This document shows positions 1,971 through 6,731 of a stretch of DNA of 7,375 nt, piece after piece. The notes under the pieces were generated by a model, which did not search any database, had not been told where the DNA came from, and saw nothing but the letters and a program-made list of their open reading frames with translations. The stretch comes from Octopus sinensis (Eukaryota): assembly GCF_006345805.1 (NCBI RefSeq), contig NW_021828877.1, forward strand, positions 1-7,375. The letters run 5' to 3'. Position numbers and translations under genes: made by a program. Positions within the stretch are counted from its first letter, which is position 1, and the number at the start of each line of letters is the position of its first letter.

Positions 1971-1984
1971 TTCTTAATTTTCTT

Positions 1985-2201
1985 TCTTTTACTTAAGTCA
2001 TTTGACTGCGACCATGCTGGAGCACCGCCTTTAGTCGAGCAAATGACCCCAAGACGTACTCTTTGTAAGCCTAGTACCTATTCTATCGGTTCTTTTGCCG
2101 ACGCGCTAAGTTACGGGGAAGTAAACACACCAGCGTCGGTTGTCAAGCGATGTTGGGGGTGGGGGGACAACACATACACACAAACACACATACGACGGGC
2201 T
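1985..2201 (-). mobile_element. SINE family B, 3' half, 5'-truncated where the hammerhead-bearing element begins
   Basis: Reverse complement aligns with 5390-5560 (gctggtgtgtttacttccccgtaacttagcg vs gctggtttctttacttctcggaaactaagcg) and has an internal (TG)n tract. I recall this as an abundant octopus SINE but cannot assign a published family name with certainty. Confidence 0.85.
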
Positions 2202-2204
2202 CAT

Positions 2205-2839
2205 CGTGTCTCATCGTTATACATTATAATTTTTCAAATTCACCGCGCAAGCGCAGTTTCAGTCGGTAGTAAATGAATATATGCCGAACTAATCTTTTAA
2301 AAATTGCTAAAAACATATACGTAAAATATAGGGTAGCGAGTGTTTTTTTCAGAAATTTCACTACCAGTGGCCTAGCATGTATAAAAGTCAATAGACAACA
2401 TATTCTCAATATGAAATAGTGTACATTTAACGACAAGAGAGACTGAAAATTTGAAAAAATATAATGTATAACGATGAGACACGTGTTCGTCTCTTACTTA
2501 TATGTTAGTACTATGGCGTGGTCACTGATGAGAAATTCGCCAAGCAAAATAATTTATTTGTTAAAAATATTTTGAAACCTCGGTCTGACCAGAATAAAAT
2601 AACAAGGTAAATTTTTTTATTTTTCATTCCTTTTGAAGATTGCTCTTAAATGTGGTTTTGGTCGTTTTGACTACTTTTTCTAGCGTGTGAAACTGCTTGT
2701 TTAAGGCTGTTTCACTTATGTTTAAATGTACACTATTTTATATTGAGAATATGTTGTCTATTGACTTTTTTATACATGCTAGGCCACTGGTAGTGAAATT
2801 TCTGGAAAAAAAAACTCACTACCCTATATTTTACGTATA

Positions 2840-2840
<1 letters not shown>
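2205..2840 (+). mobile_element. Penelope-like / retrozyme-like non-autonomous element with an inverted partial copy
   Basis: Two interleaved inverted-repeat pairs: 2205-2264 vs 2441-2483 (the latter with a 17-nt deletion) and 2315-2430 vs 2722-2840. A hammerhead lies at 2519-2591, and the element ends in (TA)n. Confidence 0.7.
2519..2591 (+). ncRNA. Type I hammerhead ribozyme with minimal stem III
   Basis: Stem I tggtca (2519-2524) / tgacca (2586-2591); CTGATGA (2525-2531); stem II gaaat (2532-2536) / atttt (2569-2573) with a G-U closing pair; GAAA (2574-2577); stem III ACC-tc-GGT (2577-2584); GUC cleavage triplet ending at C2585. Confidence 0.85.

Positions 2841-2870
<30 letters not shown>
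2836..2870. repeat. (TA)n microsatellite
   Basis: Direct reading. Confidence 0.95.
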
Positions 2871-3058
2871 CGTTTTGGGATTTGGTTTGCAAGATTCTTT
2901 ATATGACTTCGTGTGTTGAAGCATATTCTGTTGTGTCTGGGGAGAGTCATTTTCTTTTTGTGCCTTATAATTTAACACACTCACCGGTAAAATTTCCACT
3001 TATTCCTTATTATTTTCTTAAAATTTTCGTTGCGTCTTGCAACCTTTTCAATAGTCTT
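2871..3058 (-). mobile_element. Interspersed-repeat fragment with a degenerate hammerhead-like / Penelope-like terminal motif
   Basis: Abuts (TA)n. Minus strand reads TTGAAAAG-GTTGC-aagac-GCAAC-GAAA (3051-3025). Repeat status is from recall only. Confidence 0.4.
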
Positions 3059-3096
3059 GGCTCTGTCCCTTATTTACACTGCGTTCCTTTTTGTTT

Positions 3097-3343
3097 GTTT
3101 GTGCGCATGTGTGTGGGTCAGTATGTGTATGTGTGCTTATGCATGCATGCATGTATGTATTTATGTAGGTATGTATGCATGTGTATGTATATGTGTGTAT
3201 GCATATGTATATATGTATGTATGTGTGTGCATCTGTATGTATATATTCTGCATATTCATGTGCTTGCATGTCCGTGCTTGTGTGTTTTTTATGTATGTGT
3301 GCATGCGTATGTTTGTATATGAATGCACCTCTGTGTGTGTGTG
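3097..3343. repeat. Degenerate (TGTA)/(TGCA)/(TG)n low-complexity tract
   Basis: About 245 bp of alternating purine-pyrimidine sequence; the source of four spurious ORFs. Confidence 0.9.
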
Positions 3344-3508
3344 TTTTGCAACTATGTACCATCCGTTTAATGTAAATAATGTACATAATTCCTCATCTCT
3401 TCAATATAGAACTGTATTCTTGCTTTCCCTGATGTAAGTCACCATCTCTCTGTTACTACCTTTCCCTCAGACTAATACTTTTGCAACCTTCTTATTTTAT
3501 CATATAAT

Positions 3509-4858: not shown

Positions 4859-5026
4859 CACCGTGACCGACCAGGCTATCAGATGTTGCTACACATCGCT
4901 GGTCACATTGCGCTTCGCATTGTTTTAGCTCAATTAAATACTCACAACGCCCGGTCTGGGAATCGAAACCGCGATCCTACAAAGCGCATGTCCGCTGCAC
5001 CCAAACCACTGGGCCATTGGCCTCCA
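4858..5026 (-). mobile_element. tRNA-derived SINE family C, internally deleted
   Basis: Minus strand A box TGGCCCAGTGG (5016-5006) and B box GGTTTCGATTCC (4970-4959). The 3' tail is shared with 559-631 and 5266-5306. The middle section is missing. Confidence 0.85.
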
Positions 5027-5662: not shown

Positions 5663-5827
5663 TGGGTTAAGTCGATTACATTGACCCAAATGTTCAAGTT
5701 GTACATAATTTATCGATGCGAAAGGATGAAAGGCAAAGTCGACCGCATGTAATTAGAACTCAGATCCTAAAGATGGACGAAATGCCGCTAATCATTCTGC
5801 TAACAATTCTGCCAGGTCACCGCCTTA
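5663..5827 (-). mobile_element. SINE family A, diverged
   Basis: gaaaggatgaaaggcaaagtcgac (5730-5753) is the reverse complement of the family A central domain. The head ttctgccaggtcaccgcctt is at the right end. Confidence 0.85.
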
Positions 5828-5842
5828 ATCTGAATAAATATT

Positions 5843-6008
5843 GGTTTCAAATTTTAGGAATAAGGCCAGCAAATCTAGGGAAGAGATTAGTCGATTACAT
5901 CACCCCGAAAGGATGAAAAGCAAAGTCGATCTCGGCGGATTTTGAACGCAGAGCGTAAATGTCGAGATGCCGCTAAGTATTTTGTCGGGAGTAGTAACGA
6001 TTCTGCCT
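5843..6008 (-). mobile_element. SINE family A with internal deletion, flanked by a 10-bp direct repeat (probable TSD)
   Basis: Tail ggtttcaaattttaggaataaggccagc, central gaaaggatgaaaagcaaagtcga, head aacgattctgcc. aataaatatt occurs at both 5833-5842 and 6009-6018. Confidence 0.85.
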
Positions 6009-6280: not shown

Positions 6281-6731
6281 AAGTGGCTAGCACGCTGATC
6301 TGTAAACACGTCAGCAAAATGCTTAACGGTACTTCTTCAAGGCAGCGAGCTGGCAGAAGCGTTAGCACGCCGGACAAAATGCGTAGCCGTATTTCGTCTG
6401 CTGTTACGTTCTGAGTTCAAATTCCGCCGAGGTCGACTTTGCCTTTCATCCTTTCAGGGTCGATAAATTAAGTACCAGTTACGCACTGGGGCCGATGTAA
6501 TCGACTTGATCCGTTCGTCTGTCCCCTCTATGTTTAGCCCCTTGTGGGTAGTAAAGAAATAGGTATTTCTTCAACCGTTACGTTCTGAGTTCAAATTCCG
6601 CCGAGATCGACATTACTTTTCATTCTTTTGGGGTTGATAAATTAAGTACCACCTGAGCACTGGAGTCGATGTAACGGATTAGCCCTCTCCTCCAAAATTT
6701 CAAGCCTTGTGCTTAAAGTAGTAAAGATTAT
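6281..6731 (+). mobile_element. Older SINE family A copy split by a nested insertion (segments about 6281-6340 and 6562-6731)
   Basis: gtaaacacgtcagcaaaatgcttaacggtacttcttcaa continues colinearly into ccgttacgttctgagttcaaattccgccgag once 6341-6574 is removed. Confidence 0.75.
6341..6561 (+). mobile_element. Younger full-length SINE family A copy with 13-bp TSD
   Basis: A box TGGCAGAAGCG (6351-6361), B box GAGTTCAAATTCC (6413-6425), central domain at 6432-6478. TSD ggtacttcttcaa (6328-6340) / ggtatttcttcaa (6562-6574). Confidence 0.9.

Follow-up and report, generated by a model that had tools for sequence, protein, structure and literature searches.

A non-coding 467-nt hammerhead repeat family of Octopus sinensis with insertion ends suggesting mobilisation by Penelope-like elements

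Penelope-like elements (PLEs) that carry an endonuclease, such as Neptune, Poseidon and Naiad, are described as having a tail at one end only, partial tandems with an inverted, 5'-truncated copy at the head, (TA)n targets and a hammerhead upstream of two internal start sites (PMC8557442, PMC3846280, PMC11167929). According to the account of the anole PLE, its purified protein, predicted to be dimeric, cleaves both strands and extends them, its main substrate is uncut RNA, and the two internal start sites bound the tail (PMC11167929). The origin of the tandem and inverted structures of PLEs has been called undefined (PMC8557442). Animal non-LTR retrozymes and their proposed dependence on PLEs are already published (PMC7229834; bioRxiv 10.64898/2026.07.22.740005). 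They are presented there as non-coding, tandem-type units of low GC content with one type I hammerhead and a short palindromic stem III, found as monomers to multimers in genomes that also hold PLEs. The retrozyme-PLE link has so far consisted of this co-occurrence and of similarity to pseudo-LTRs (bioRxiv 2026.07.22.740005, PMC7229834). The non-autonomous Chlamys PLEs (MRC1) are reported as non-coding PLE passengers with pseudo-LTRs and head-to-tail multicopy insertions (PMC8557442).

The structural traits listed for these three systems recur in a repeat family of Octopus sinensis, described here from a locus in a stretch of 7,375 nucleotides that makes up an entire contig (the window). Its copies have a short, low-GC, non-coding unit in head-to-tail tandem, with at least two hammerheads at some loci, and they combine partial tandems and an inverted 5' copy with insertion at (AT)n and a tail at one end only. 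We regard the locus as probably one insertion of a dispersed, non-coding, tandem-type repeat of 467 nt that is mobilised by PLEs with priming at two sites. The family very probably represents a non-autonomous, PLE-driven element of the animal non-LTR retrozyme kind, whose reverse transcriptase (RT) and endonuclease would be supplied in trans. It also departs from each described system. Invertebrate retrozymes are given as 170-400 nt long (Cervera and de la Pena 2020; Li, Clavereau and Pollet 2026), which places the 467-nt unit at or above the upper end. Retrozymes form arrays and accumulate circular RNA, whereas the family, described here from genomic sequence, consists mostly of dispersed insertions in the sample, over half of them head-to-head; fixed priming sites and PLE-type ends are not among the features that the retrozyme accounts cited above describe. 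Compared with the endonuclease-bearing PLEs as published, the family lacks an ORF, has a tail of about 97 nt instead of 30-40 nt, and carries a hammerhead with a long stem II and an extended stem I in place of a minimal one. Its arms end on ATAT microhomology, whereas the anole PLE is reported to start without target homology (PMC11167929). MRC1 elements, according to their description, are similar at their 3' end to an autonomous family, for which we found no counterpart in 94 stretches around GIY-YIG matches, and belong to a clade without canonical hammerheads.

Two arms, delimited by self-BLAST and family comparison, make up the locus. The plus arm (2441-2840, plus strand) holds about 0.9 unit, namely the end of segment X, segment A, the hammerhead and segment B. 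The inverted arm (2205-2445, minus strand) reads B of the previous lap, X and the start of A. Both inverted pairs reported in the initial annotation are recovered by self-BLAST: the B arms (2709-2840 and 2443-2315) match at 91.7% over 132 columns (E 8.6e-50) and the A arms (2448-2483 and 2240-2205) are identical at 35 of 36 positions (E 7e-13). The longer A pairing proposed there, 2441-2483 with 2264-2205, holds with one gap, the plus arm opening with GACTGAA and missing the next 17 nt of the family (deletion after 2447). Segment X (2241-2314, minus strand) is the 74 nt joining B to A in tandem copies, giving a unit of 393+74 = 467 nt where about 465 nt had been claimed. Unit positions (u) are counted from the first base past the predicted ribozyme cut, u1 being window position 2586; u158 is 2743, u255 is 2840, X covers u256-329 and A begins at u330. 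GC content of the unit is 30%. The unit is non-coding, as had been supposed, with longest stop-free frames of 50 codons in the plus arm and 73 codons in the minus arm.

The minus arm reaches to about 2445 and overlaps the start of the plus arm by about 4-5 nt; a '10-nt junction' (2431-2440), formerly set apart as a separate piece, is instead the 5' continuation of the minus arm. Downstream, the plus arm stops at the second of two end sites defined below and continues into the (AT)n run that is its target site (2836-2870, no strand assigned). The minus arm contains the B-X-A tandem junction and is broken off at 2205 (u365), next to a short repeated CGATGAG and before either standard end. Adjoining this cut end is the 3' part of an abundant SINE-like repeat (1980-2201, minus strand) without its head of about 150 nt. 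The element had been thought to truncate this SINE, which does start at 2201, but the missing head is found nowhere in the window. Because sequence is lost on both sides, a deletion or repair junction at 2201/2205 fits better than an insertion splitting the SINE.

Each unit holds one type I hammerhead, its self-cleavage being a prediction from the sequence. In the window the predicted fold spans 2510-2603 on the plus strand, with the cut predicted between 2585 and 2586. Its core lies where the initial annotation had seen a hammerhead (CTGATGA, 2525-2531; GAAA, 2574-2577; GTC, 2583-2585). Stem I pairs 2519-2524 with 2586-2591 and has in addition a distal stem, weakened in the window copy. The family fold consists of stem I CGGTCA/TGACCG with its distal extension, CTGATGA, GAAA, stem III and GUC or GUA. 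Stem II is long, with 6 bp capped by an inner hairpin of 8 bp, and stem III is short, formed by the family palindrome ACCTAGGT with one change in the window copy. Short palindromic stems III are said to mark hammerheads that work as dimers (PMC4209133). Rfam scans reported no hammerhead, only simple-repeat miRNA noise. The active fold was the minimum-energy fold in none of four copies folded, and stem I formed in two of the four.

In an alignment of 61 copies the stems are paired in 89.9% of cells, and the core, intact in the window, is intact in 38. Core conservation is 0.96 against a median of 0.95 for the other columns. With an intact core in only 38 of 61 copies, and hardly more conservation there than in the rest of the unit, copies appear to decay neutrally once inserted. 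Covariation within the family (24 cells changed on both sides against 11.8 in shuffles of the 61 copies) is inflated by relatedness, and for that reason we give more weight to stem changes between families. Two sister families allow this comparison. Family 2 is an ORF-less hammerhead family with 298 candidates and a period of about 447-496 nt (L094:2330-2900, plus strand; L135-L159). Family 3, with 60 pattern matches (L160-L184), is 65-75% like the 467-nt unit and has a period of about 460 nt, its hammerhead core mostly with U replacing C3. Both retain the core or its U3 variant while stems I and II change in step, in a compensated manner. Stem III most often takes the form of a palindrome that differs between the families: ACCTAGGT for the 467-nt family (28 of 59 copies), ACTCGAGT for family 2 (9 of 13) and ACCATGGT for family 3 (13 of 16).

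A search of the genome with window positions 2441-2840 gave 2,480 first-look candidates, the best 40 of which were scored. Four further DNA searches with family sequence led to 98 distinct loci after removal of overlaps and of one near-duplicate (L081); they are the best-scoring matches to chosen queries and not a random sample, and the counts of end sites given below are biased by these queries. Copies differ by about 7% from the column majority (98 segments). The earlier annotation had envisaged that the arrangement might turn out to be a one-off rearrangement or the sequence single-copy. Neither applies to this dispersed multi-copy family, and the B-X-A junction recurs, in the same orientation as A-hammerhead-B, in many copies, 40 scored candidates of one of the further searches among them. 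The tandem arrays suggested for search exist up to about three units: multimers are present at 3 of the 98 loci (L190, about 2 units; L217, about 2.3; L216, about 3). Most arms are shorter than 1.55 units and the sampled copies are mostly dispersed insertions of 0.5-1.5 units. L216 has three hammerhead regions, L190 two, the upstream one with a damaged core, and the window copy one. In the three-unit array of L216 (1322-2725) the internal tails share a deletion of about 22 nt over site 1, the terminal end has an intact site 1, and units 1 and 3 seem closer to each other than to unit 2.

Family copies carry a GC-rich CGCTTGCGC motif followed by a TATA-like stretch (window 2217-2256, minus strand) about 93 nt before the hammerhead core, and both sister families have a comparable motif upstream. 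With a loose pattern it is found upstream of the hammerhead in 33 of 59, 8 of 13 and 8 of 16 copies across the three families. A promoter role for this motif is a guess. Family-like sequence is present in contigs of four runs (three presumed RNA, one of uncertain kind), which is not informative on expression, strand, ends or circles.

The ends of the copies are strongly patterned. Among 151 arms of 60 nt or more at the 98 loci, 122 end at site 1 (68 arms; u139-175) or site 2 (54 arms; u225-258), about 97 nt apart. In window coordinates site 1 is 2743 (minor 2752) and site 2 is 2840 (minor 2829). The ends peak at u158 (39), u167 (8), u244 (9) and u255 (26), each an ATAT end, and 82 of the 151 arms finish exactly there; no comparable peak is seen at the five further ATAT words of the window's unit, despite a query bias towards arms crossing them. 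AT runs follow 39 of 61 site-1 ends and 37 of 48 site-2 ends (76 of 109 together) against 4 of 26 other ends (86 loci). The segment between both sites (2744-2840, plus strand) forms the tail.

Head-to-head pairs occur at 54 of the 98 loci, against one weak case of a tail-to-tail pair. The inversion proposed in the initial annotation is accordingly present, though as the usual form of the family rather than as a one-off local event. In most pairs the arms abut within a few bases. Where both ends of a head-to-head pair could be classed, 24 of 28 pairs have one end at each site (mixed pairs; Fisher p=0.0007) and four do not; in the other 26 of the 54 pairs, window included, one or both ends fall elsewhere, and the test excludes them. 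Conditioned on the longer arm to limit query bias, the rule reads that a longer arm at site 2 has its partner at site 1 in 17 of 18 pairs, and a longer arm at site 1 has its partner at site 2 in 7 of 10. We found no description of the 467-nt family or of this one-of-each rule in the literature searched, which left most subscription papers and repeat databases outside its range. At L029 (1132 and 1816) a head-to-head pair has outer flanks that are alike when each is read in the sense of its own arm (ATAAAGCATGATT...), as if the target flank had been duplicated in inverted form.

Such pairs could be imagined as two independent insertions in one AT-rich hotspot or as later local rearrangements, and different PLE-type elements do pile into single (AT)n runs (window 2836-2870, L197). 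The abutting arms mostly have no (AT)n between them, however, and chance insertion does not account for the near absence of tail-to-tail pairs, nor for arms that share subfamily variants and follow the one-of-each rule. As a general cause this explanation is refuted, and we consider it extremely improbable. Arms of one locus share minor variants in the same lap (81 against 22.6 expected) and in different laps (31 against 7.0), which shows that they share a source or subfamily, though they need not stem from a single molecule.

We privilege the hypothesis, with fair though not high confidence, that the inverted arm is made by priming on both target strands. A PLE protein bound to the tail would cut an (AT)n run on both strands, the resulting 3' ends would each pair with an ATAT on one side of the tail and prime reverse transcription, and the two cDNAs would extend upstream and join at their far ends, leaving head-to-head arms of which one has the tail and the other does not. 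L1 twin priming, in which the second target strand primes on the RNA, likewise yields an inverted 5' piece. The L1 case has a variable second site and pieces with hardly any overlap, whereas the sites of the 467-nt family are fixed beside one tail and its arms often overlap by hundreds of bases. Fold-back self-priming of a single cDNA, or an antisense template, is a different way to invert an arm of a PLE-mobilised element. Self-priming has been proposed for rotifer Penelope elements (PMC3846280), and both arms start at a near-identical unit position in many pairs (L003, L005, L028, L029). With fold-back, the sequence of one arm is contained in that of the other; simple fold-back cannot yield the window and five other loci (L009, L026, L027, L071, L073), because in these neither arm contains the other. 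Fold-back alone also gives no reason for the second arm to end at the other fixed site beside (AT)n, and we hold it to be unlikely.

Under priming of both strands, arms longer than one unit call for a repeating template, which could be an RNA circle, a partly cut multimer, or a ribozyme-cut monomer on which synthesis jumps from the 5' to the 3' end. The choice is limited to these three because the ribozyme site is no barrier to arms on the first lap. A covalent RNA circle stands only just short of an even chance. Known retrozymes do form circles (PMC7229834), upstream and downstream laps show no fixed differences, and tandem laps within one arm share variants (79 against 26.7 expected), as a circle also predicts. 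An apparent lack of shared rare variants between tandem laps (4 against 3.5), which would have argued against a circle, vanished with more loci and a looser variant cut-off. Base variation at the cut site tracks subfamily and is not junction noise.

In another version of this explanation the template is always linear RNA with a ribozyme-cut 5' end, either a partly cut multimer or a monomer entered again at its 3' end; we find this quite possible, if somewhat less probable than its negation. Long arms stop in excess within the 35 nt past the upstream cut (u1-35) on the second lap: 9 of the 15 arms at risk do so, compared with 15 of 67 in the remaining bins (p=0.009), in a small, score-ranked sample (31 rows of 40 scored) with bins fixed after a first look. 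By eye, no such excess past the cut site is present on the first lap. A plain circle gives no reason for stopping there on the second lap only, and the uncut RNA reported as main substrate of the anole PLE also speaks for a linear template (PMC11167929). The excess hints at a ribozyme-cut 5' end, yet the second-lap starts are scattered over positions 8-35 rather than placed at 1.

The tail of about 97 nt is the segment common to all three hammerhead families. Its folding energy is ordinary (z 0.09). The sister families end at two places equivalent to sites 1 and 2, and about eight family-2 pairs, read by eye, look mixed. We infer that the tail is a protein-binding and priming region.

Candidate donors of the machinery are abundant. 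Searches with PF01541 and two proteins reveal many GIY-YIG retroelements in the genome, some with open frames of 775-883 codons that match GIY-YIG and RVT_1 (the latter just below cut-off). Most have a CxxxxCxxC-like linker, a feature tied in the literature to Neptune and Nematis (PMC8557442). A young Neptune-like family (L125:674-4374, plus strand; L128) has a 781-codon RT/GIY-YIG frame preceded, with slight overlap, by a separate frame of 479 codons. Downstream of the GIY-YIG frame in L103, L133 and L134, the 3' region of a PLE family contains a tandem duplication of about 250 nt interrupted by (AT)n runs. Within the window, the 3' end (pseudo-LTR) of an ORF-bearing Penelope-like family (2864-3344, minus strand; matching the sequence that follows the GIY-YIG frame of L277 at 85% over 437 columns) lies tail-to-tail with the element on a common (AT)n run. 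Copies of this ORF-bearing family end at two ATAT sites separated by about 55 nt, and the three two-armed loci that it has among 22 stretches are all mixed.

The unit has no ORF with RT plus GIY-YIG, and the window no PLE protein match. The unit or its tail was found as a pseudo-LTR next to an ORF in none of 94 (44 + 50) partly overlapping stretches around GIY-YIG matches, drawn from about eight protein families in a genome that holds thousands more candidates (5,029; 18,999; 8,019). The ribozyme retroelement proposed in the initial annotation is borne out as a permuted, non-coding, multi-copy unit of about 467 nt with Penelope-type insertion signatures, and not as regards linkage to a Penelope ORF in these 94 stretches. 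Apparent links were discarded: tail matches in L094 and L131 are separate sister-family insertions, L251 has just weak matches of 28-33 nt, and the PLE of L197 is a neighbour across a microsatellite.

This partial sampling of PLE families leaves some room for the view that the copies are merely truncated pseudo-LTRs of an unsampled autonomous PLE; PLE insertions are described as mostly 5'-truncated, with pseudo-LTRs that hold hammerheads (PMC8557442, PMC4209133). Long arms, however, pass through X into the tail of the previous unit, up to about three units and with no ORF. When 16 PLE-locus frames were compared with 148 family loci by tblastn, in no case did an arm run on into PLE coding sequence, and inspection of two loci by eye showed the PLE pieces there to be neighbours distinct from the arms. 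Single arms have no common upstream sequence other than that of other repeats. We judge truncated pseudo-LTRs very unlikely as an explanation, and retain that of a non-autonomous element served in trans.

The kind of element is already known, and its value is as a sharp and cheap test of mechanism with an unusually clear integration geometry. Here a hammerhead repeat with no ORF bears a PLE integration signature, and the presence of a tail at just one end becomes a rule that can be counted across inverted pairs. The two different fixed ends of back-to-back copies are a clue to the likely priming of both cut strands by PLEs, and the cis element of about 97 nt, kept in three families, is a candidate cargo signal. 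Tentatively, these elements can be joined in one reading, whose truth as a whole we place somewhat below even chance: at least three retrozyme families (about 460-490 nt) would record how PLEs build tandem and inverted structures, one protein dimer priming both strands of a cut (AT)n run at two ATAT sites, one on either side of a conserved 97-nt binding element, and copies longer than one unit arising from ribozyme-cut RNA whose 3' end is entered anew, with synthesis running off the cut 5' end on the second lap. If true, it would give direct genomic evidence for animal retrozymes integrating by the PLE reaction, with a minimal non-coding substrate.

In the window, ARAGORN gave no match. Another abundant SINE-like repeat has pieces on both strands at 1086-1360, 5668-6004 and 6339-6730, and a 63-nt repeat is present at 572-634 and 4864-4926.
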